In this document: positions 1 through 9,276 of the stretch, in pieces
How the letters are laid out: each line of letters begins with the position of its first letter
Position numbering within the stretch: the first letter of the stretch is position 1
Program-made: the position numbers and the translations under genes
The notes under the pieces: generated by a model
What the model was told of the DNA's origin: nothing
Databases searched by the model: none
What the model saw: the letters and a program-made list of their open reading frames with translations, nothing else
Origin: a virus
Taxonomy: Duplodnaviria; Heunggongvirae; Uroviricota; Caudoviricetes
Length of the DNA stretch: 9,276 bases
Direction: 5' to 3' (one strand)
Virus record (IMG/VR): IMGVR_UViG_2737471845_000024
Coordinates: 1 to 9,276 of that record

Positions 1-120
1 CTGCGCATTATTCAGCTGGAGGCGGTGCAGGAAGAAATGGCTAACGAATTTCGTGATCTGCTTGTTGAGAAATTCAAAGACAGCAAAGTAGAAACCTTTA
101 TTGGTACTTTCACCGCCTGA
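1..120 (+). CDS. 3' end (last 39 codons + TGA) of a gene that starts left of the window; uncharacterized prophage protein
   Basis: Frame 1 is the only frame open from position 1; it translates [39 protein letters not shown] and stops at TGA 118-120. Frames 2 and 3 hit stops early. By synteny with yfdQ-yfdR of E. coli prophage CPS-53 it could be YfdQ-like, but the fragment is too short to verify. Confidence 0.45.
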
Positions 121-132
121 TTTCATTACTGC

Positions 133-154
133 AAATGCCCCTGCGGGGGCATTT
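133..154 (+). other. GC-rich hairpin just downstream of the partial gene (possible weak terminator or RNA structure)
   Basis: aaatgcccc-tgcg-ggggcattt gives a 9-bp perfect stem with a 4-nt loop. The only T-run is the 3 Ts inside the stem, so it is not a canonical intrinsic terminator. Confidence 0.3.
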
Positions 155-248
155 ATGGAAACGTAATTGACTCAATAATCGCCGGATGGTGAGGGCTTCC
201 TTTTACCAGAATTCAGCGCGGTGCAGCGCATATAACGTGGAGAACAAA

Positions 249-773
249 ATGTCATTTATTAAAACTTTTTCCGGGAAACATTTTTATTATGACAGGATAA
301 ATAAAGACAACATCGATATTAACGATATCGCGGTTTCCCTTTCAAATATCTGTCGCTTTGCCGGCCATCTTTCACACTTCTACAGCGTCGCCCAACATGC
401 GGTGCTTTGCAGCCAGCTGGTACCGCAGGAATTTGCTTTTGAAGCGTTAATGCATGATGCAACAGAAGCGTATTGCCAGGACATCCCGGCTCCACTGAAA
501 CGCCTTCTTCCTGACTATAAACGGATGGAAGAAAAAATAGACGCCGTAATCCGTGAGAAATACGGGTTACCCCCGGTTATGAGTACGCCCGTGAAATATG
601 CCGATCTCATCATGCTGGCAACCGAACGCCGCGATCTCGGGCTTGATGATGGCTCTTTCTGGCCCGTACTGGAAGGTATCCCGGCAACAGAGATGTTCAA
701 AGTTATTCCACTGTCGCCAGGCCATACCTATGGGATGTTTATGGAACGCTTTAAAGAGTTAACTGAGTCGTAA
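249..773 (+). CDS. yfdR: HD-domain phosphohydrolase, YfdR-like (cryptic-prophage 5'-deoxynucleotidase family)
   Basis: ORF-track ORF 186..773. I place the start at ATG 249 (GGAG at 239-242, 6-nt spacer) rather than ATG 186, which has no RBS. The translation MSFIKTFSGKHFYYD... carries HD-domain signatures (...GHLSHFYSVAQH..., ...LMHDATEAY...). I recognise it from memory as very close to E. coli prophage protein YfdR. A hand-counted 100-nt sample (351-450) is ~53% GC. Confidence 0.8.
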   Translation: MSFIKTFSGKHFYYDRINKDNIDINDIAVSLSNICRFAGHLSHFYSVAQHAVLCSQLVPQEFAFEALMHDATEAYCQDIPAPLKRLLPDYKRMEEKIDAVIREKYGLPPVMSTPVKYADLIMLATERRDLGLDDGSFWPVLEGIPATEMFKVIPLSPGHTYGMFMERFKELTES

Positions 774-881
774 AAATCAGCACGTACGAATTCAAACTCT
801 GCCATAAAAGAACATATAAGTAATTTATTAACATATAGATATAGGTTATATTACAAATTGAAAAATTATTGGAGAGCAACA

Positions 882-1748
882 ATGAATCAAAATCCATTCT
901 CATTCTATGACTTTCTTGGATATTTAATACCAGGTGGTTTTTTTATCCTATTAATGTATTTCTGTGGTTTGACATTCGATCTAGATATTGTTATTGACTT
1001 AAGTGAATTGCTCAGAGGTCAAAGTCAAATCTTTGGCATTTTGAACTACGCTTCAATAGTTATTATATCTTATATAGCTGGACATTTTATTTCTATCACG
1101 TCAGCATTTTTTATCGAAAAATACATGAATAAAGAATTAGGATATCCTTCCAAATATCTATTTAAAAAATTGATAGATACCTCAGAAAGCATTTGTAGCC
1201 CATCATGCGATGAGAGAAGCGCTGATAAAAAAACAAAAATAAAGAATCGCATAATCAAATGCGTATTATGCCCAATAATACTATGGGATTTTATAACACA
1301 AAAACTATGTTATTCTCAATCTCTACCATTTCATTTAGCTAATACAACATGGTTAATGATCAAAGAAGGTTATGAGAAAAAGTTCATAACAAATCGCCAA
1401 TTATTACAAGATAAAAACGGACTTGATGATGATCTCTTCAGATTGGCATATCATTATGTTTATGAGTTTTCAAAACAACATCAAACAAAAATTCAAAACT
1501 ATGTTGCATTATATGGTTTTTGCAGAAACATATGTTTAATCTTTATAATTTCATTTTGGGTATCAGTTCCAACCTTTATTTATCGATTATGTACTCATAG
1601 TGATTATCTTTATAGTTTACTTTCAATAATGCTTAGCTTTTTCTTCGTCTATGTTTTCTATGTTGGTTTTGTTAAATTTTATAGAAGATATACTTTAGAA
1701 GTATTAATGGCATTTGCTGTACTTCAAAGTAACGACACTATTCGTTAA
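882..1748 (+). CDS. AT-rich predicted 4-TM inner-membrane protein of unknown function (prophage moron)
   Basis: ATG 882 is preceded by GGAG 871-874 (7-nt spacer); the ORF-track start at 858 is a TTG. A hand-counted sample (901-1000) is ~29% GC, against ~53% in the adjacent yfdR-like gene. Two N-terminal hydrophobic helices (FLGYLIPGGFFILLMYFCGLTF; IFGILNYASIVIISYIAGHFISITSAFFI) and two C-terminal ones (LYGFCRNICLIFIISFWVSVPTFIY; LYSLLSIMLSFFFVYVFYVGFV) flank a ~130-aa basic hydrophilic domain with C-x3-C and C-x2-C pairs. No family recognised. Confidence 0.75.
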   Translation: MNQNPFSFYDFLGYLIPGGFFILLMYFCGLTFDLDIVIDLSELLRGQSQIFGILNYASIVIISYIAGHFISITSAFFIEKYMNKELGYPSKYLFKKLIDTSESICSPSCDERSADKKTKIKNRIIKCVLCPIILWDFITQKLCYSQSLPFHLANTTWLMIKEGYEKKFITNRQLLQDKNGLDDDLFRLAYHYVYEFSKQHQTKIQNYVALYGFCRNICLIFIISFWVSVPTFIYRLCTHSDYLYSLLSIMLSFFFVYVFYVGFVKFYRRYTLEVLMAFAVLQSNDTIR

Positions 1749-1789
1749 TAATGTTGCTCCCGTGTGCAGACGGGATAATGGAGAAACGT

Positions 1790-1996
1790 ATGCTGAACCT
1801 CGATTGTGTTCCTATCTCAACTTATTGCAAAGAAACTGGCGAAACTCCTGAAGCAATAAACAAACGTGTACAGCGCGGTGTTTGGCGTGAAGGTGTTCAG
1901 GTTTTAAAGGTTGAAGGCGTTAAGGAGAGGTGGATTGATCTTAGTGAGGTTGCAAAATGGGCCAGACAAAACTGCTCAAACTACCGCGCGGCGTAA
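1790..1996 (+). CDS. small excisionase-like (Xis/recombination directionality factor-type) DNA-binding protein
   Basis: ORF-track ORF 1751..1996. Preferred start is ATG 1790 (GGAG 1780-1783, 6-nt spacer), giving 68 aa: MLNLDCVPISTYCKETGETPEAINKRVQRGVWREGVQVLKVEGVKERW... It is small and basic, sits directly upstream of the integrase gene and overlaps it by 40 nt, as lambda xis-int does. The call rests on context and general resemblance, not on a proven motif. Confidence 0.55.
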   Translation: MLNLDCVPISTYCKETGETPEAINKRVQRGVWREGVQVLKVEGVKERWIDLSEVAKWARQNCSNYRAA

Positions 1997-3129
1997 CAAT
2001 CAGGAAACACCGCCAGGGAGAAACGATCAATATAACTTTCACCTACAAAGGAGTTAGATGTCGTGAGCCGCTTTCCAATCTGGAAGTAACACCAAAGAAC
2101 ATTAAATACGCCGAGCGTACACTCGGCGAAATCCATAATAAGATCGAAAGGGGAACATTCATTTATGCAGAATATTTTCCCCGTTCTGCTCGTTTGAAAA
2201 TTTTTGGTAATGCTGCTGCAGGCAAAACGGTAAAGATGTACCTGGACGAATATCTTGAAATCTGCGAAACAAGAAAACTTTCACCCTCTACGATTGGTGG
2301 CTATAAAAAATGCCGTAGTGCGTTAGCCTCACTTCACATTTGCCCTGCAAGTGAATTAACACCAGCAACCCTGAAAGCGTGGATTCAAAATCAGAAAACG
2401 ACCTTAAAAACAATTCGCAACCAGTTATCTTTCCTGCGGTCAGCACTTGATGAAGCCGTGACCGATGGGGTACTTCAAATTAACCCCGTATCGTTAGTAA
2501 CAGCTTCGCGCTACCAAAGTGATAAGTCAGAAGCAGAAAGCAGCTACGTAGTTGATCCGCTATCACCAGCAGAAGTTGATGCATTACTAGCAGCAGCCGG
2601 AAACAAACAATGGGAAAATCTGTTCCGGTTCGCTATACATACAGGCCTGCGTAGTTCTGAATTATGTGCCCTTCGATGGCGTGATATCGACTTTGTTGGA
2701 AAAACTGCCCATGTCCAGAGCGCAAGTGTTGTCGGTGTTATCAAAGGGACAAAGACAAAAGCAGGTACTCGGAAAGTTGAACTGACAGAAGAGGCAATGT
2801 TGGCGCTGATAAATCAGAAGCCATTTACATTCATGAAGGATACTACTGTCTTTGAAGATCCAAAGACCAATAAGCCTTGGGCAAGTGCTGATGCAATCAG
2901 GAAAAAAGCATGGGTGCCAACATTGCGAAAAGCAGGTATTCGTTACAGAAATCCATATCAAACTAGGCATACATTCGCCACCCGCCATATCAGCCGGGGA
3001 GCAAACCTGTTTTGGCTTGCAGCTCAAATGGGGCATAAAGGGCCGGAAATGTTATTTCGTCATTATGGTTCATATTTAAAGGAATATGACGGTAATACGA
3101 CCAGCAATATCACAAAAAAAGCCACTTAA
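1957..3129 (+). CDS. int: phage tyrosine recombinase / integrase (lambda-type, 390 aa)
   Basis: ATG 1957 with GAGG at 1946-1949. Tyrosine-recombinase catalytic signatures are visible in the translation: ...HTGLRSSELCALRWRDID... (box I Arg) and ...HTFATRHISRGANLFWLAAQMGHKGPEMLFRHYGSY... (H-x-x-R, conserved His, catalytic Tyr). The N-terminus KHRQGETINITFTYKGVRCRE looks like an arm-binding domain. Confidence 0.92.
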   Translation: MGQTKLLKLPRGVTIRKHRQGETINITFTYKGVRCREPLSNLEVTPKNIKYAERTLGEIHNKIERGTFIYAEYFPRSARLKIFGNAAAGKTVKMYLDEYLEICETRKLSPSTIGGYKKCRSALASLHICPASELTPATLKAWIQNQKTTLKTIRNQLSFLRSALDEAVTDGVLQINPVSLVTASRYQSDKSEAESSYVVDPLSPAEVDALLAAAGNKQWENLFRFAIHTGLRSSELCALRWRDIDFVGKTAHVQSASVVGVIKGTKTKAGTRKVELTEEAMLALINQKPFTFMKDTTVFEDPKTNKPWASADAIRKKAWVPTLRKAGIRYRNPYQTRHTFATRHISRGANLFWLAAQMGHKGPEMLFRHYGSYLKEYDGNTTSNITKKAT

Positions 3130-3140
3130 GTGGCTTTATC
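3114..3140. terminator. bidirectional intrinsic terminator between convergent gene ends
   Basis: A-run 3114-3120, then a perfect 20-nt palindrome aaagccacttaagtggcttt (3118-3137) that contains the int stop codon TAA (3127-3129), then T-rich sequence. On the minus strand the hairpin is followed by TTTTTTT. It lies between the int stop (3129) and the stop of the reverse 127-aa gene (3143). Confidence 0.5.
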
Positions 3141-3142
3141 AA

Positions 3143-3526
3143 TTAGGAGGCTCTCGATTTAAGCATTTCCGTACACTTAGCAAAGAGCCTCTCAGTTGTT
3201 AGAATCGCAACTTCAGACTGTTTAGAAGTGACCGATTGATCAAGTCGATAGTCTGCAACAATCCTCTGAGCTTTAAGTTGACTCAGGATAAAACTAATCC
3301 CTTTTAGATATCTAGCTTCATATACTTCACTTCCTCTTGAAGCATCGCCCTGCAAATAATTGATTAGCCCCTGATGACTGTCTTTCGGCCCGTTTACCAT
3401 ACAAGGCAAGACATGATGGTAAGCGCCATAGTAGGATCTTGCTATAGCATTTCGATAGCCGATTTCGTCATTACGTTGATGACAGTCTTTTGCAAAACCG
3501 AGAAAATCTTGACTATTAACCGGCAT
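3143..3526 (-). CDS. 127-aa helical protein, second gene of a two-gene cargo operon; tentatively HEPN-like fold
   Basis: ORF-track ORF 3143..3532 begins at a TTG. The ATG at 3526-3524 is preceded by GGAGGG (6-nt spacer) and overlaps the upstream gene's stop by 11 nt, indicating translational coupling. Translation: MPVNSQDFLGFAKDCHQRNDEIGYRNAIARSYYGAYHHV...LKAQRIVADYRLD... The AIARSYYGAYHH helix (R-x6-H) and a later R-x3-DY segment recall HEPN-family profiles; this is from memory and unverified. Confidence 0.65.
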   Translation of the reverse strand: MPVNSQDFLGFAKDCHQRNDEIGYRNAIARSYYGAYHHVLPCMVNGPKDSHQGLINYLQGDASRGSEVYEARYLKGISFILSQLKAQRIVADYRLDQSVTSKQSEVAILTTERLFAKCTEMLKSRAS

Positions 3527-4331
3527 GTGCAACCCTCCGGGTAATCAGACCTAATTCGGAGATAGCATTCTGCTCAATATGTGTGTCTTTACATTCAAAC
3601 CAAACAGCAAAATCTTTACCGACTAAACAATCGTGCTCAGCCATTGAAAAAGCAAGCTCAATATTCATATCAGCGATTTGTTCAGCATCAGAAGACTTTG
3701 TCATGAATACAATCGCATTCACTTTCTCTTCCGAAATATTATAAAAACGCATTCCCGAAAGATGAACCTTCTGAGAATCCATGACATTGGCTACATTATT
3801 GAAAATAAGTTCATATTCTAAACCAGAAAGATCGGCACGTTGCTTAAAGGATTCGACCTGGGAAACAACTTCATCAAGATTGTTGTCCATTTTTTCAGGC
3901 TCCTTATCTCCGAACAATTTAGAGTATGACTGGAAATACTTCTCCGCCAACGCCATCTTCCCCATAAAGAGGGAGTTTTCATAAGCTTGAAGATAAATAA
4001 ACGGGGATATGAAGCTTTCAGCAAGCTTAATGCTTGTTTCAAAGCTTTTCTTCAACGTACCGTAATCTGACAAGAAAACAAGAAAATTCTTTGCAACAAC
4101 CTCATTATGGCATACCTGCAAGGAACGCTCAAAGAAGCCTATCGCCTCATTCACTTGGCCATGTGCACCATAGACCAACGCTAAAAGATAGTCCTCAGAG
4201 ACAGGATCTCTAAGTGCTTCAATCTCACGTAACATCCTTCTAAAGCTAAAGTCATCAATCCTCACTCCATCTTTGAGGTATTTAGTTAGCCGCGCGCTAA
4301 TAACTGATGCTTTTTTTGCTGGCTGCAACAT
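3516..4331 (-). CDS. 271-aa helical protein with TPR-like N-terminal segment, first gene of the two-gene cargo operon; function unknown
   Basis: ATG 4331 is the only possible start (AAGG 6-7 nt upstream; in-frame stop upstream at 4446-4448 with no alternative start codon). TPR-like stretch ...DYLLALVYGAHGQVNEAIGFFERSL... No nucleotidyltransferase (GS...DxD), P-loop or nuclease motif seen. A hand-counted sample (3601-3700) is ~38% GC. Confidence 0.7.
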   Translation of the reverse strand: MLQPAKKASVISARLTKYLKDGVRIDDFSFRRMLREIEALRDPVSEDYLLALVYGAHGQVNEAIGFFERSLQVCHNEVVAKNFLVFLSDYGTLKKSFETSIKLAESFISPFIYLQAYENSLFMGKMALAEKYFQSYSKLFGDKEPEKMDNNLDEVVSQVESFKQRADLSGLEYELIFNNVANVMDSQKVHLSGMRFYNISEEKVNAIVFMTKSSDAEQIADMNIELAFSMAEHDCLVGKDFAVWFECKDTHIEQNAISELGLITRRVAHAG

Positions 4332-4456
4332 TAAAAACCTTATCTTACAAATAGTTGGTAATGATGTTGAATTATTTTTTGTTCTTTATGGCTAATAAGA
4401 TTACATGAAGGGACAACTTCTGACCACCTTAGAAAACACTCACTTTAGTAACAAGA

Positions 4457-4474
4457 GTCAATAATATTGTTGAC
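4457..4474. promoter_or_regulatory. 18-bp imperfect dyad (16/18) gtcaataatattgttgac, candidate operator in the intergenic region upstream of the reverse operon
   Basis: Its reverse complement is gtcaacaatattattgac, with a perfectly palindromic aatatt centre. It overlaps -35-like hexamers on both strands (TTGACA on plus, TTGACT on minus), but no convincing -10 partner was found. Confidence 0.25.
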
Positions 4475-4525
4475 AAATCACAAAAAAACAAACTTATCCA
4501 AAACAATCTGGTTTATCACAAAGCC

Positions 4526-4548
4526 TCTGTGCATAAATCTGTGCATAA
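4526..4548. repeat. tandem direct repeat tctgtgcataa x2 (12-bp period) in the phage arm next to the att core
   Basis: tctgtgcataa occurs at 4526-4536 and again at 4538-4548. It lies ~220 bp left of the att core in an A/T-tract-rich region and could be integrase arm-type sites or a regulator site. Confidence 0.3.
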
Positions 4549-4757
4549 CATCATTTTTACACACATTTTTTATAAAAATATTTTTTAGCAAAAAATGCTA
4601 TCTATCTCCGAAACTGCAACCACAAACCATTAATTCCAAATGAAACTATTTTAAAATAAATAGTAAGACAGTAACAGGACAGAAAAAGTTCCGCAAAAGA
4701 GCCGCTTGTAAAATCAACAATATTTGGCTATTTAAATTCAATGAATTACATAACTAT

Positions 4758-4789
4758 GGACACGGGTTCAACTCCCGCCAGCTCCACCA
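4758..4789 (+). repeat. partial copy of the tmRNA (ssrA) 3' terminus: attachment-site core at the junction of two integrative elements
   Basis: ggacacgggttcaactcccgccagctccacca has a T-loop (TTCAACT), the acceptor 3' strand and CCA. It matches my recollection of the E. coli ssrA 3' end GGACGCGGGTTCAACTCCCGCCAGCTCCACCA with one mismatch (A at 4762, weakening the T-stem). The ~330 nt upstream are AT-rich and show no tmRNA features such as the tag-reading frame, so this is not a functional gene copy. Confidence 0.7.
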
Positions 4790-4836
4790 AAATTCTCCAT
4801 CGGTGATTACCAGAGTCATCCGATGAAGTCCTAAGA

Positions 4837-4868
4837 GCCCGCACGGCGCAAGCCCTGCGGGCTTTTTT
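4837..4868 (+). terminator. rho-independent terminator downstream of the ssrA-derived core
   Basis: gcccgca-N12-tgcgggc stem (alternative inner stem agccc/gggct) followed by TTTTTT at 4863-4868. Confidence 0.55.
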
Positions 4869-4920
4869 GTGCCCTCAATTTGTCCCGCGAAGTCCGAAGA
4901 AAACTAATTAAATCCGATCC

Positions 4921-4976
4921 TTTTAGGCACCTTGTTAGGCACCTCATAAAGCTTTATTGTTTTTTGAGGTGCCTAA
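4921..4976. promoter_or_regulatory. repeated TTAGGCACC(TCA) motif, two direct copies plus one inverted, just upstream of the IntA-like integrase gene
   Basis: ttaggcacc at 4923-4931 and 4935-4943 (direct); the 12-mer ttaggcacctca at 4935-4946 recurs as its reverse complement tgaggtgcctaa at 4965-4976, separated by an 18-bp AT-rich spacer. All copies lie within 75 bp of the int start codon (4995). Confidence 0.4.
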
Positions 4977-4994
4977 AACTATGGAAACCCGGCA

Positions 4995-6236
4995 ATGGCA
5001 AGACAAACCAAACCTCTATCCGTTAAAGAAATAGAATCAGCCAAACCCAAGGAGGCGGACTACGTTCTCTATGATGGCGATGGCCTTGAGCTACTCATTA
5101 AATCCAGCGGGAGTAAAATCTGGCAGTTTCGCTACATTCGCCCTGTCACCAAGAAACGAGCAAAGAAGAGCATAGGCTCCTACCCGTCAGTTACCCTTGC
5201 CGATGCCAGAAACTACCGTGCAGAGTCCCGCTCACTACTGGCTAAACAGATCGATCCGCAGGAACATCAGCAAGAACAATTGCGCAGTTCGCTGGAAGCC
5301 AAAACCAACACTTTCCAACTCGTAGCTGAACGTTGGTGGAATGTGAAGAAAGCCAGTGTGACAGAGGACTATGCGGAAGATATCTGGCGCTCTCTTGAAA
5401 GAGACGTCTTTCCTGCGATTGGCGACGTTAGCGTTACAGATATTAAAGCTCATACACTGGTTCAGGCCGTACAACCGGTTCAGGCCAGAGGAGCACTGGA
5501 AACTGTTCGTCGCCTGTGCCAACGTATTAATGAGGTCATGATCTATGCCCAGAACACAGGGCTGATTGATGCTGTTCCCAGCGTTAATATCGGTAAAGCC
5601 TTCGAGAAGCCTCAGAAAAAGAACATGCCCAGCATTCGACCGGATCAGCTACCTCAGTTAATGCAGACGATGCGAACAGCCAGCATTAGCCTTTCCACAC
5701 GCTGCCTGTTCATGTGGCAACTTCTTACTATTACCCGCCCTGCCGAAGCGGCTGAAGCTCTCTGGGAAGAGGTAGACATAGAAGCGCGAGAGTGGAAGAT
5801 TCCTGCAGCACGCATGAAAATGAACCGCGACCATACTGTTCCATTGTCAGATGAAGCAATTGCGATACTAGAGATGATGAAGCCGTTAAGTGGAAATCGA
5901 GAATTTATCTTTCCCAGCCGCATCAAGCCAAACCAGCCGATGAACAGTCAGACCGTAAACGCATCGCTAAAACGCGCAGGTTTTGGTGGGGTGCTCGTTT
6001 CACACGGCCTGCGATCTATCGCCAGTACAGCCCTTAATGAGCAGGGATTTCCACCTGATGTTATTGAGGCTGCACTTGCTCATGTGGATAAGAATGAGGT
6101 TCGTCGTGCGTATAACCGTAGTGATTATCTTGAGCAGCGACGGCCTATGATGCAGTGGTGGGCTGATTTTGTGATGGCTGCAGATCACGGTAGTATGATT
6201 GAAGGAGGGATAAAGGCAATGCGGTTAGTTGGATGA
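4995..6236 (+). CDS. intA: P4-family tyrosine integrase, IntA (CP4-57)-like, 413 aa
   Basis: N-terminus MARQTKPLSVKEIESAKPKEADYVLYDGDGLELLIKSSGSKIWQFRY... is the arm-binding domain typical of P4-type integrases. Catalytic signatures: ...TITRPAEAAEALWEEVD... and ...HGLRSIASTAL...ALAHVDKNEVRRAYNRSDY (H-x-x-R, His, Tyr). Length and position directly downstream of the ssrA att core match E. coli CP4-57 IntA as I recall it. RBS is weak (GGAAA). Confidence 0.93.
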   Translation: MARQTKPLSVKEIESAKPKEADYVLYDGDGLELLIKSSGSKIWQFRYIRPVTKKRAKKSIGSYPSVTLADARNYRAESRSLLAKQIDPQEHQQEQLRSSLEAKTNTFQLVAERWWNVKKASVTEDYAEDIWRSLERDVFPAIGDVSVTDIKAHTLVQAVQPVQARGALETVRRLCQRINEVMIYAQNTGLIDAVPSVNIGKAFEKPQKKNMPSIRPDQLPQLMQTMRTASISLSTRCLFMWQLLTITRPAEAAEALWEEVDIEAREWKIPAARMKMNRDHTVPLSDEAIAILEMMKPLSGNREFIFPSRIKPNQPMNSQTVNASLKRAGFGGVLVSHGLRSIASTALNEQGFPPDVIEAALAHVDKNEVRRAYNRSDYLEQRRPMMQWWADFVMAADHGSMIEGGIKAMRLVG

Positions 6237-6316
6237 CATGTCGTAGCTAAAACCCGTTCTGTTTTTGGGTAGATTAACCTGAAGGTCTGCAATTTTAAAT
6301 GACGCTGAAAGAAGTT

Positions 6317-6345
6317 AAACCCTGCTCTTAAGCAGGGTTTTTATG
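6317..6345. terminator. bidirectional intrinsic terminator between intA-like gene and the large reverse ORF
   Basis: aaaccctgct-ctta-agcagggttt is a perfect 10-bp stem with a 4-nt loop, followed by a T-rich tract on the plus strand (tttttatgatttatt). It lies between the convergent stops at 6236 (+) and 6375 (-). Confidence 0.55.
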
Positions 6346-6374
6346 ATTTATTCTAATTTTGGTTTTGAATCTTT

Positions 6375-9276
6375 CTATTTTAAATCAGCCTTTGCGGCTC
6401 GAATATCTGCGTTTTTTGCTGAGTATTCCCATTCGTCAGCGATTCTAAATAGCATTGCAGAAGTACGGACGCAGTGGGGCATTGAATTTGCCCATTCTCG
6501 GTACTGCTCAGCTAATATCCTTTCTTGGTTTCCACCTTCGTAACGCATACGAGCAAATACCCCCCTTTTATTGTACCTACCAATTTGTATACCTTGCTCT
6601 AACTCATCAGAAGATAATATTTCAATGATGTGCCGAATTGCTTCATGTGGCCAGGAATTATCTACTGAGCTATTAGGGGCATGTGCCAGAATTTTTCCTA
6701 TTACATGATCAGTGATTTCTTGGCGATGATGCAATTTTGCTAAATGGCGTACATTCTCACACCAATCTTCAAGTTTATCTTGATCAATTTCATTGTCTAT
6801 CTGCCCTGGTAGTATTCGTAATTTTTCAAGTAATCTGTATATAGAAGTAGCTCTTTTAACTTCCAACTCCGATGGTTCTGTTTGTTCATCTTCGTCACTA
6901 CGATATACAATACATATTGCTTCTATAAAAACCTCTGGCTTTTTCATCATTAGACGATGCAGGATAAGTGGCTCATCGCTATCCGGAAAACAAGGCAAGT
7001 AGGTCATTTCTTTAAATGCCAAATCTGTTTCAGAAACATCGTTACGTTGTTTGAGTTCATCAAAAACTTTTTTTACATAGTACGATAGCATTGTATCAAA
7101 TTGGATATCCTGGCTATTTATTTCTTTAACGACTATATCTAGAAGATATAAAAGTGTTGTAGATGGAATCTCAGAAAGGCGTTGATTTGCTGATATAATA
7201 GCAGCAAGACCCCGGCCCCTTTCTATATATTTATCCATAAGAACAAATAAATCCGAAGTTTTACCCATCATTGCAATGGGTTGTTTTTGCAACCAATATT
7301 TTTCGTTGATGTTATCTTCAAACCCTTCAATAATGCTCCATATCTCTTGTGAGTCTCTTAACGATGCTAAGATTTTCCCAGCCCTATCAGGGGTAATTTT
7401 AAACTGTTTAAAATACACTTTTATTTTATTAAGCCATTCAGCACCAAAGCATTCAACACCATATTGCATTAACAACCCACAAACTTCATCAATATTTTTT
7501 TTGTTGTTAATAAGCATTACAAACAAATCATTTAATTTTTCTTCATCCAACGAGAGTGCTGATATATGCCTTGCTGCAATAAAAACATTATTAACTTGTT
7601 GAAAAAGGTCTTTCACCCCAGACAAACCTAAAGTAAAGTATATTTCCCTAAGTTTTTCACTTCGCATTTCTGCGACAGAAGAAAAAATTCCGCCAGCATT
7701 TTCAATTGACTCTTCAATATCAGAATCCCAATCATTGAAAATCCATAAACTGGCTCTAACCATGTCAATTGGTTTATAATTATCAAGTATTTTCGCTATT
7801 TTTTCCATAGACTCAAATTTAAATGCCCAGTTCGCATCTGAATATTTTTTATGGCGAGAATACTCATGACGCAAAGCCTCCCATACGATGAACTGATCCT
7901 CTTCAGTTTGTTGAGAAAGGCAAAGTTCAAGATGAGAAAGTGTTTCATCTATTGCATTCTCAGGGAATGAGCTTAAATGAGAGATTAGGATTTCCCATCT
8001 TGTTGGGAGTATACCTGCAAGTTTAATTGCTTCTTGGATAATAAAGATTTGCCCCTCCCAAACAACGCCCCACGTTAGTTTTTCTACATCTTTATCCGAC
8101 TCTCTGAACTTCATTTTTTGGTTTTGATCAGAGGTATCATGGGAGCGAGGAAGGAGATTTTGTAACAAACTCCACCCAATACTAGGAACAATAGTGATAA
8201 TTTTTTTTATAATTGCATTTCTAACTTTTACTGGTGCCCATGTATTAGGAGACCATGCCAGAAAAATGGTTCTTAAACTATTAAGAGGGCGATCTGAGTA
8301 AGTTCCTCCGGGATCTATTACAGCGAGTTTTGCAAGACAGATTGCAGCGCGTAATAGATATGTTTGTTCCCAAGCCAAGGCTTCCAATGCCCATTTTAAT
8401 CCATGATAATGACTTCGAGGAGTTAACAGCCCTTTATCTTCATTGAATATTGGAGCAATCATTTCCCCATTGCCCTTAAGCAATTGCTCAAGGGCATCAA
8501 GGAAAGGGCCAGGGGCAGCTTCTGCCAGCAGCGGAAGTTGATCTCGCAAACTAACAAATAGTCGATGGTCGTTAGCAAGTCCCGGAATACTCTGAACTAT
8601 TTTGTTAACAAAATCTTGGGGTGTCATACCAGTAACCCGGAATTCGGCCTGTTCATGTAATATTGCCATATGTAGCAAAACTGTTGTCATTCCATTACGT
8701 AACCACGAGCTATAAGACGTTTTAATACCATTGTCAGGTACAAACAGATCTTCGGCCTTTGGTGGTTCAGGAATATAGGAAAAAACCTCTCTTACGGCCT
8801 TCTCAAAACGCTCCAGGTGTTCTTCACCCAGCAAATAGCCTAAATGTACAAAAGCATCTACCGACGAACGCAATGACCAAATATCATCTACTCGGTCAAT
8901 TGGAGAATCGCGGCGCTTTGTTAATAGCCTTAATGGATTTTCAACTTGAGAATAGTCTGTATAGCCAGCTAGTTGCTTGAGAATTAACTTATCTTTCTCT
9001 GAACATGTACTCCATGCACCAGCTAATAAAGCAGGGAGCAACTCAGGGCTGTCTTTCCATTCAGGTGATTCAGCCGTGCTACTTGATATCTGGCGAGCCA
9101 AAACAGACAAACTTCGGCCACACTGCCGCGCTATTTGATAACTTTTATCTGAATCAAACCCCATAGATTCAAGAGCCTTACCTAAAGATATACTATCTGG
9201 GCGGATCAGAAGTTCGTGATCAGTTCGTGTTTCATCGGCTCCGGCACTTACTACTGTGTGAAGTGGTTTACTGAAT
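6375..9276 (-). CDS. large uncharacterized protein (>966 aa visible, N-terminus beyond right window edge); predicted mostly alpha-helical; candidate cargo/defence protein
   Basis: The reverse-strand frame is open from the window edge to TAG at 6375-6377. The ORF-track start (Met at 9164) is internal: the 37 codons upstream (9165-9275) are open in the same frame (...FSKPLHTVVSAGADETRTDHELLIRPDSISLGKALES-MGFDSD...). No P-loop, helicase, nuclease or methyltransferase signature was recognised by eye. Base composition is heterogeneous (see findings). Confidence 0.88.
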   Translation of the reverse strand, partial: FSKPLHTVVSAGADETRTDHELLIRPDSISLGKALESMGFDSDKSYQIARQCGRSLSVLARQISSSTAESPEWKDSPELLPALLAGAWSTCSEKDKLILKQLAGYTDYSQVENPLRLLTKRRDSPIDRVDDIWSLRSSVDAFVHLGYLLGEEHLERFEKAVREVFSYIPEPPKAEDLFVPDNGIKTSYSSWLRNGMTTVLLHMAILHEQAEFRVTGMTPQDFVNKIVQSIPGLANDHRLFVSLRDQLPLLAEAAPGPFLDALEQLLKGNGEMIAPIFNEDKGLLTPRSHYHGLKWALEALAWEQTYLLRAAICLAKLAVIDPGGTYSDRPLNSLRTIFLAWSPNTWAPVKVRNAIIKKIITIVPSIGWSLLQNLLPRSHDTSDQNQKMKFRESDKDVEKLTWGVVWEGQIFIIQEAIKLAGILPTRWEILISHLSSFPENAIDETLSHLELCLSQQTEEDQFIVWEALRHEYSRHKKYSDANWAFKFESMEKIAKILDNYKPIDMVRASLWIFNDWDSDIEESIENAGGIFSSVAEMRSEKLREIYFTLGLSGVKDLFQQVNNVFIAARHISALSLDEEKLNDLFVMLINNKKNIDEVCGLLMQYGVECFGAEWLNKIKVYFKQFKITPDRAGKILASLRDSQEIWSIIEGFEDNINEKYWLQKQPIAMMGKTSDLFVLMDKYIERGRGLAAIISANQRLSEIPSTTLLYLLDIVVKEINSQDIQFDTMLSYYVKKVFDELKQRNDVSETDLAFKEMTYLPCFPDSDEPLILHRLMMKKPEVFIEAICIVYRSDEDEQTEPSELEVKRATSIYRLLEKLRILPGQIDNEIDQDKLEDWCENVRHLAKLHHRQEITDHVIGKILAHAPNSSVDNSWPHEAIRHIIEILSSDELEQGIQIGRYNKRGVFARMRYEGGNQERILAEQYREWANSMPHCVRTSAMLFRIADEWEYSAKNADIRAAKADLK

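Follow-up and report, generated by a model that had tools for sequence, protein, structure and literature searches.

The stretch of DNA considered here, called the window throughout, comprises positions 1 to 9,276 of the IMG/VR virus record IMGVR_UViG_2737471845_000024, a total of 9,276 nucleotides (nt), and consists of Escherichia coli DNA. Its subject is a large open reading frame (ORF) on the minus strand, here called the big gene, which runs towards a tyrosine integrase and is cut at the right end of the window by an insertion sequence (IS). An earlier note, made from the sequence letters, had described this ORF as a giant orphan in the integrase-adjacent cargo slot of a P4-like element and had speculated that it might form the sensor or scaffold part of a larger defence protein such as a STAND-type NTPase (signal transduction ATPases with numerous domains). 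The gene, its subregions and its immediate surroundings are as follows.

4995 to 6236, plus strand: P4/CP4-57-type tyrosine integrase of 413 amino acids (aa), with the Pfam domains Arm-DNA-bind_3, Phage_int_M and Phage_integrase.
6317 to 6340, no strand assigned: bidirectional intrinsic-terminator hairpin with a 10-bp stem, a 4-nt loop and a T-run on each strand.
6375 to 9258, minus strand: 3' remnant of a 1248-aa gene (codons 289-1248 plus TAG), covering the last strand and the lid of a predicted AAA+/STAND-like domain and the whole alpha-solenoid.
6822 to 8021, minus strand: most variable part of the solenoid, residues 701-1100, from the conservation profile.
8172 to 8621, minus strand: most conserved solenoid block, residues 501-650, with the motifs LAEAAPxPF, LExLAW, CLARLA and NRPxNSLR; it contains the segment 534-649, which is weakly and co-linearly similar to Avs8 (PD-lambda-4_A) residues 558-665.
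8659 to 8663, no strand assigned: IS3 insertion site of most other E. coli copies, uninterrupted in the window; the two alignment pieces from GE3 overlap here, with an annotated IS3 between them.
9259 to 9276, plus strand: terminal inverted repeat of ISEc52.

Translation confirmed that the minus-strand frame is free of stops from 9275 to 6378 and closes with TAG at 6375-6377, so that it is open from the right window edge over 966 codons; the first ATG places its entry in the ORF list at 6375..9164. A homology search returned 385 homologues at E <= 1e-3, mostly of about 1250 aa, and for this reason the ORF is regarded as a real gene and not a chance frame. The intact allele, found in E. coli 55989 (WP_000871158.1, 1248 aa), aligns with the window up to position 9258, where identity ends. 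The gene-derived part of the ORF amounts to 960 codons (residues 289-1248), preceded by six codons of IS sequence, and differs from the protein of 55989 by a single substitution, E817A. The GC (guanine plus cytosine) content of the big ORF is 33-44%, compared with about 49-50% in the integrase.

At its right end the window carries the terminal repeat of ISEc52, a member of the IS3 family, which makes up the final 18 nt (9259-9276, TGAAGTGGTTTACTGAAT). The exact 18-mer is present in 93 IMG/VR contigs, often at contig ends; IS3-type OrfA and OrfB come after it in L084, and annotations of E. coli genomes name that element ISEc52. Because these 18 nt are an ISEc52 end, the window copy is cut after codon 288 (288/289), and it is an IS-disrupted pseudogene whose gene has been inactivated in the source strain. 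The expectation that the real protein is larger than its visible part thus holds for the ancestral gene of 1248 aa and fails for the source strain, in which the IS breaks into the gene 18 nt short of the window edge. No complete E. coli genome that was searched has a match spanning the IS junction of the window. The last 18 nt had also been considered as the start of a paralogue, a chance match to a gene beginning with 'MKWIT' in L051, and this was rejected with the identification of the 18-mer as the ISEc52 end.

The family to which the big gene belongs is large and spans many phyla, which removes the label of an orphan. In addition to the 385 homologues, a profile of the N-terminal 330 aa matched, among representative clusters at the 50% identity level, 3461 with E <= 1e-3, of which 1672 reach E <= 1e-30, and its full-length top matches are nearly all of about 1245-1275 aa. 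The 65 loci drawn from species-representative genomes are distributed patchily over phyla and lie in Alpha-, Beta- and Gammaproteobacteria, Cyanobium, Acidobacteria, Planctomycetota, Verrucomicrobia and Myxococcales. At 114 family positions conservation reaches at least 94%; given this and the uniform length of about 1250 aa across phyla, the family appears to be under purifying selection. GenBank names its members 'hypothetical', apart from one full-length record called 'addiction module' and N-terminal fragments called 'XRE family transcriptional regulator'. These two labels look misleading, since no helix-turn-helix (HTH) or XRE model matches the full-length protein and the region is predicted to fold as a nuclease. 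The accessions of the family are absent from the DefensePredictor supplements, the Hochhauser supplements and the searchable full text. The earlier note had named a confident match, over the full length, to a characterised non-defence family as evidence that would overturn its proposal; none was found in Pfam, NCBIfam, PADLOC or the PDB sequences.

The N-terminal head of the protein lies beyond the window and was modelled on residues 1-330 of P0002, an 80% identical homologue (predicted local distance difference test score, pLDDT, 91; predicted template modelling score, pTM, 0.90). In this model, residues ~1-165 adopt the fold of an Mrr/FokI-type PD-(D/E)xK nuclease with the alpha-beta-beta-beta-alpha-beta core of that class, and the closest folds of the putative nuclease domain include AspBHI, MspJI and the Mrr-like head of LlaBIII. 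The residues D54, E74 and K84 are invariant among members down to 26% overall identity. Residues ~170-330 are modelled as an AAA+/STAND-like alpha/beta domain whose Walker A loop has been lost; a conserved (L/V)xAGRExQ stands at the Walker A site, with a DSP(D/E)E motif after the second strand. The top Foldseek match of the head is Avs4 (E = 1.9e-3, probability 0.92), and because 326 of the 330 columns are aligned, both head domains match Avs4 co-linearly.

A perfect Walker-A-like string was noticed elsewhere in the head of one clade. Members from Pseudomonas, Stutzerimonas, Zymobacter and Pokkaliibacter (L022, L024, L026-L028, L030 and L067) carry GTNGAGKT or GASGAGKS at residues ~76-83, or later if an upstream start is used, in the loop that joins strand 3 to helix 2, where the string is conserved within the clade. 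GTNGAGKT was rejected as a Walker A motif and treated as coincidental, for it sits in a loop of the nuclease domain, outside the AAA+-like domain; the string of this clade is probably a coincidence.

The C-terminal 960 aa are all-alpha, forming a solenoid of about 900 aa that is the part visible in the window, and no catalytic domain was found in this visible part. Its description in the earlier note as a long helical-repeat region without a catalytic signature is therefore upheld. The C-terminal part matches only solenoids of the protein-binding type, and no specific structural relative of it was found in the PDB. Across 52 species-level members, the best-conserved stretches are residues 1-350, 501-650 and 1101-1248, and the least conserved is residues 701-1100, where the mean fraction of the commonest residue is 0.34-0.52, compared with 0.53-0.71 elsewhere. 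Residues 701-1100 may accordingly be regarded as a candidate target-recognition surface. The conjecture that the visible part is the sensor of a STAND-like defence protein is thus supported by the predicted nuclease, the AAA+/STAND-like domain and the best match to Avs4, and has to be corrected in one respect, in that a protein lacking Walker A is not a canonical STAND NTPase.

The position of the gene is that of mobile cargo. The integrase matches the NCBIfam model NF007246 over its full length (E = 5e-281) and shares about 79% DNA identity with intA of K-12; it is convergent with the big ORF, and the hairpin that separates the two has a fold energy of -16.5 kcal/mol (z = -3.3), as the earlier note had read this arrangement. 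In CP4-57 of K-12 the position of the big gene is occupied by yfjH, as the earlier note had stated. Among strains whose tmRNA integrases are 90-94% identical to that of the window, strain 1105 holds an unknown 288-aa gene in this slot, with Hachiman deeper in the island, strain ECO8855 holds an ABC-three-component (ABC-3C), Lamassu-like system, and strain FEX669 holds a Helicase+DUF2290 pair (PADLOC; Helicase E = 1.7e-110, DUF2290 E = 2.5e-13) exactly between the integrase and the PD-lambda-4 genes. The slot next to the integrase is thus variable among ssrA-integrated relatives. The integrase allele of the window is present at >=99% identity in 209 E. coli genomes and the big gene in 188-204, a tight linkage. 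The big gene moves horizontally, as cargo that tmRNA-integrated islands carry in their integrase-proximal slot. Rousset et al. reportedly described, in 2022, Rst_Helicase-DUF2290 among the cargo of P4/P2 hotspots. Such cargo shares the integrase-proximal slot with the big gene, and in FEX669 the pair replaces the big gene beside PD-lambda-4, but the Rst_Helicase-DUF2290 proteins are unrelated to the big-gene protein and the likeness is positional only.

Beyond the big gene in E. coli 55989 lie two divergent genes of 1283 and 248 aa, which are full-length PADLOC matches to PD-Lambda-4_A and PD-Lambda-4_B. PD-lambda-4 is now named Avs8, an Mrr-nuclease STAND NTPase that senses major capsid proteins of the HK97 fold (bioRxiv 10.1101/2025.07.02.662641; PMC13581612). 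In MG1655, the Avs8AB operon needs no further gene to confer lambda defence and gpE-triggered toxicity, and Avs8A has the order Mrr nuclease, NTPase-type domain and helical sensor (bioRxiv 10.1101/2025.07.02.662641). The earlier note had expected partner genes further to the right; these two genes are an independent system, being sufficient by themselves and lying near the family gene in only 4/70 loci, all of them enterobacterial and with the genes on the opposite strand. Clustering of all ORFs from the 70 loci yielded no conserved partner gene for the family, and the big gene forms no two-gene operon with Avs8B or with any co-directional partner.

Among known defence proteins, the one closest in structure to the two-domain head is Avs4 (AVAST type 4; PDB 8dgf), although it has no detectable sequence similarity to the family, which has neither Walker A nor a PADLOC Avs match. 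The features of an Avs protein are shared in part: the predicted nuclease effector is N-terminal and the helical-repeat region that would be the sensor is C-terminal, whereas the central STAND P-loop NTPase with Walker A (GxxxxGK[ST]) and Walker B is missing, as is a profile match. Avs8A (WP_000963924.1) has the same domain order, lies in the same island and is of similar length, 1283 compared with 1248 aa; unlike the family, it carries a canonical P-loop, GLSGVGKT, at residue 241 and has the operon partner Avs8B. The PADLOC profiles of PD-Lambda-4_A do not match the big-gene protein. Weak similarity to Avs8 was nevertheless detected, co-linear and spread over four or five blocks: hhalign aligned a 107-column block (family 534-649, Avs8 558-665; E = 0.002-0.003, probability 10-14%), the N-terminal profile aligned family 96-166 with Avs8 103-177 (E = 0.015), BLASTP gave two co-linear high-scoring segment pairs (E ~0.02), and the hidden Markov model of the family scored Avs8 at 8.3 bits, compared with <= -0.1 for 500 shuffles. 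The four best alternative hhalign alignments are all co-linear, compared with lower and scattered matches in reversed-profile controls; in the profile-profile comparison, the homology probability was no higher with an Avs8 alignment of 25 sequences. This pattern in the sequences suggests that the family and Avs8 may share distant ancestry, perhaps as very distant paralogues.

Two published proteins bear on the missing P-loop. KpAvs8 naturally lacks nucleotide-binding residues (PMC13581612), and Dsr1 shares the sensor of Avs7 and lacks the STAND NTPase domain (bioRxiv 10.64898/2026.01.04.697583). By its published description, KpAvs8 has in common with the family the absence of nucleotide-binding residues; it may or may not belong to the family, and it is a precedent for a functional Avs protein without a P-loop; in K. 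pneumoniae only fragmentary family members were found.

The size of the neighbouring Avs8B varies between islands. PD-lambda-4_B has 303 aa in L008 (4737-5648) and in FEX669 (L171, 17989-18900), and in 55989 (L002, 19987-20899), GE3 and O104:H4 it appears to be split into 248 aa and a 51-aa ORF; the Hochhauser table lists two 'B' genes for the islands of these last three strains.

The genomic context of the family is rich in defence genes and integrases. The 105 immediate neighbours of family genes include LmuB, AriA, AbiL, PD-T4-7, Avs8, SngC, PDC-S06, BrxH and PDC-S39, as well as a CBASS 2TM effector, Tmn and DpdJ, along with 7 integrases, 2 resolvases and one transposase. A tyrosine integrase is the sole widely shared neighbour (14/70 loci). 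The order in an Aeromonas locus is integrase, family gene, CBASS, AlpA and DUF927; a Burkholderia locus holds Lamassu and Mrr, a Polynucleobacter locus AbiE, PD-T4-7, PDC-S31 and GmrSD, and a Buttiauxella locus is a small integrase island. The Polynucleobacter locus also holds, just upstream of the family gene, three co-directional genes of 1012, 1211 and 305 aa (L003, 2241-9940), within a dense defence island and without a Pfam or PADLOC match. As PD-lambda-4-like partners of the family they were rejected, having no PADLOC matches and not being conserved elsewhere; the three-gene set may be an undescribed system.

In E. coli, some part of the big gene is present in 204 of 5426 complete genomes (about 4%). 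Its state was assessed in an even sample of 60 of these 204 genomes, and the counts refer to genomes rather than to independent events. Damage to the other copies consists of one or two inserted IS3 elements, of truncation at any of four further positions, or of the loss of 1 nt. Many genomes match the window only up to 8659-8663, and many have a second IS3 near codon 64; in L001 the IS3 elements lie at 14429-15591 and 16921-18083, and 66 genomes are continuous over 8500-9258. The lesion in the window, caused by ISEc52, differs from the others found in E. coli. The widespread damage may reflect a cost of the gene or the clonal spread of one damaged island.

From these observations, the big gene is probably a stand-alone Avs-like (bacterial NLR-like, after the NOD-like receptors) anti-phage sensor-nuclease that has been inactivated by ISEc52 in the source strain, and such a protein would probably work independently of nucleotides. 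Its architecture, context and slot variability come from computation, and from these we infer how it might act. The solenoid would bind a protein made by the phage, and binding would drive oligomerisation through the central domain with no hydrolysis of nucleotide. Oligomerisation would join the nuclease heads, DNA would be degraded, and the infection would be aborted. A more specific proposal, tentative and held at somewhat below even odds, is that the family consists of phylum-spanning NLR/Avs-like receptors without nucleotide binding: a distant, P-loop-less sister of Avs8 with another solenoid, responding to a different phage protein or to the same one (the HK97 capsid), with a variant Mrr nuclease (D...E...K on the helix) and an assembly that would be independent of NTP.

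Several results weigh against the Avs-like interpretation. Neither the window part nor the full-length protein has a match in Pfam, PADLOC, NCBIfam or the PDB sequences, the last searched with the single sequence and with a profile; the full-length protein matches no family at E <= 0.1, 20 members match none at E <= 1, and the PADLOC Avs models and Pfam NACHT, NB-ARC and AAA_16 give no match. Two positions after E74 stands a glycine in place of the canonical lysine of (D/E)xK, so that K84, on the next helix, would have to replace that lysine in a putative catalytic role. Walker A is absent at the equivalent site in every member, which counts against the proposed oligomerisation step. The similarity to Avs8 lies below accepted thresholds, with hhalign probabilities of 3-14%, and the richness in defence neighbours is a raw, uncontrolled count. 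Finally, a single uninterrupted full-length copy is present in 16 of the 60 sampled genomes (about 27%), and so low an intact fraction could mean that the gene is useless rather than costly.

Each of the other explanations that were weighed is less well supported than the Avs-like one. An enzyme resembling those of Type IV restriction, in which the Mrr-like head would cut DNA, for example modified phage DNA, that the helical body reads directly instead of detecting a phage protein, is unlikely, even though it comes ahead of the rest: the nuclease folds nearest to the head include those of the modification-dependent enzymes AspBHI and MspJI and the Mrr-like head of LlaBIII, and the gene has no partner, a trait of many Type IV enzymes, yet Pfam detects no SRA, winged-helix or other modification-reader domain, the C-terminal part resembles only solenoids of the protein-binding type, and the two-domain head matches best, and co-linearly, with Avs4. 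Only slightly less probable is a selfish function for the island, either as an addiction or stabilisation module or as a nuclease that excludes competing plasmids or elements from the same attachment site. The integrase found in 14/70 loci, the single 'addiction module' record and the tight tie to one integrase allele (188-204 compared with 209 genomes, >=99% identity) would fit such a role, but the 70 loci contain no conserved antitoxin-like partner, and many loci have defence neighbours without any integrase. Addiction is further disfavoured because IS-inactivated copies persist stably with the island.

Those inactivated copies raise the question of whether the gene is decaying cargo without a current function, from a family whose role might even be non-immune, as a scaffold or regulator. 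The disruption of the window copy and of about three quarters of the sampled E. coli copies, together with the XRE label on some N-terminal fragments, points in this direction; the length, which stays at about 1250 aa from phylum to phylum, and the 114 positions conserved at >=94% argue otherwise, as do the missing HTH/XRE match and an N-terminus predicted to fold as a nuclease rather than as a DNA-binding HTH, and decay is considered improbable. Least probable is an accessory or third component of PD-lambda-4/Avs8, such as a decoy, a regulator or a second sensor. The gene does adjoin Avs8A, from which it is transcribed divergently, in E. coli as well as in relatives with as little as 80% protein identity, and it shares with Avs8A the length class, the domain order and the weak co-linear similarity. 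However, Avs8 accompanies the family in only 4/70 loci, all enterobacterial, Avs8AB alone provides lambda defence and gpE-triggered toxicity (bioRxiv 10.1101/2025.07.02.662641), Avs8 of FEX669 adjoins Helicase-DUF2290 instead, and the transposon insertions shown for gpE survivors lie outside the big gene.

The remainder of the window belongs to the island border and to a second element.

1 to ~4757: end of a lambdoid-type prophage, with yfdQ, yfdR and its own integrase at 1957-3129.
4758 to 4789, plus strand: last 32 nt of ssrA, the tmRNA gene, forming an attachment-site copy and the left border of the island, by alignment to L001.

The prophage is distinct from the island and is integrated in tandem at ssrA, upstream of it, which explains why the window has two integrases; strains YF-1 and FEX669 have the same arrangement of prophage and island. 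Position 4758 of the window aligns to L001 10459, within the ssrA annotated there at 10128-10490, and an 'ssrA' annotation appears among the matches that begin at 4758; ARAGORN found no complete tmRNA gene in the window. The tmRNA locus is hotspot #9 of E. coli defence, and the island of O104:H4 is listed with the mobile genetic element (MGE) type 'None' and PD-Lambda-4 as its sole system (PMC10121019). None of the P4 core genes (psu, delta, sid, alpha primase and others) is annotated in the island of 55989, which otherwise holds AlpA, a GTPase pseudogene, IS elements and remnants only. The designation as a P4-like element was consequently too broad: the island is P4-like only through its integrase.

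Three further ORFs of the prophage part deserve mention. A 296-aa ORF at 858-1748 on the plus strand, with 27-29% GC, resembles a protein that spans the membrane several times; it has no match in Pfam and only weak PADLOC matches to the type VI-B CRISPR accessories Csx27 (E = 1.4e-5) and tm_4 (1e-3), and the ORF may represent accessory or defence cargo of the prophage. Between the prophage integrase and the ssrA fragment, two overlapping minus-strand ORFs at 3143-3532 and 3516-4331 encode proteins of 129 and 271 aa with no Pfam match above threshold and no PADLOC match. The 129-aa protein contains the Rx6H string RSYYGAYH, by eye reminiscent of HEPN domains, and both ORFs recur in FEX669 (L171, 7150-8338), where they are annotated as hypothetical.

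At present PADLOC v2, NCBIfam, Pfam and the published island maps list only PD-lambda-4 at this locus and leave the adjoining 3.7-kb gene unexplained. As the window copy is an IS-disrupted pseudogene, experiments would need the intact allele. If the more specific proposal of receptors without nucleotide binding is true, an unannotated system is carried by about 4% of complete E. coli genomes, and the STAND 'switch' would be inessential for pattern-recognition immunity. Confirmation of the gene as an Avs-like sensor-nuclease without a P-loop would improve the annotation of defence in E. coli, including the O104:H4 outbreak strains, and in many environmental bacteria, and would extend the Avs/NLR paradigm to nucleotide-independent receptors.

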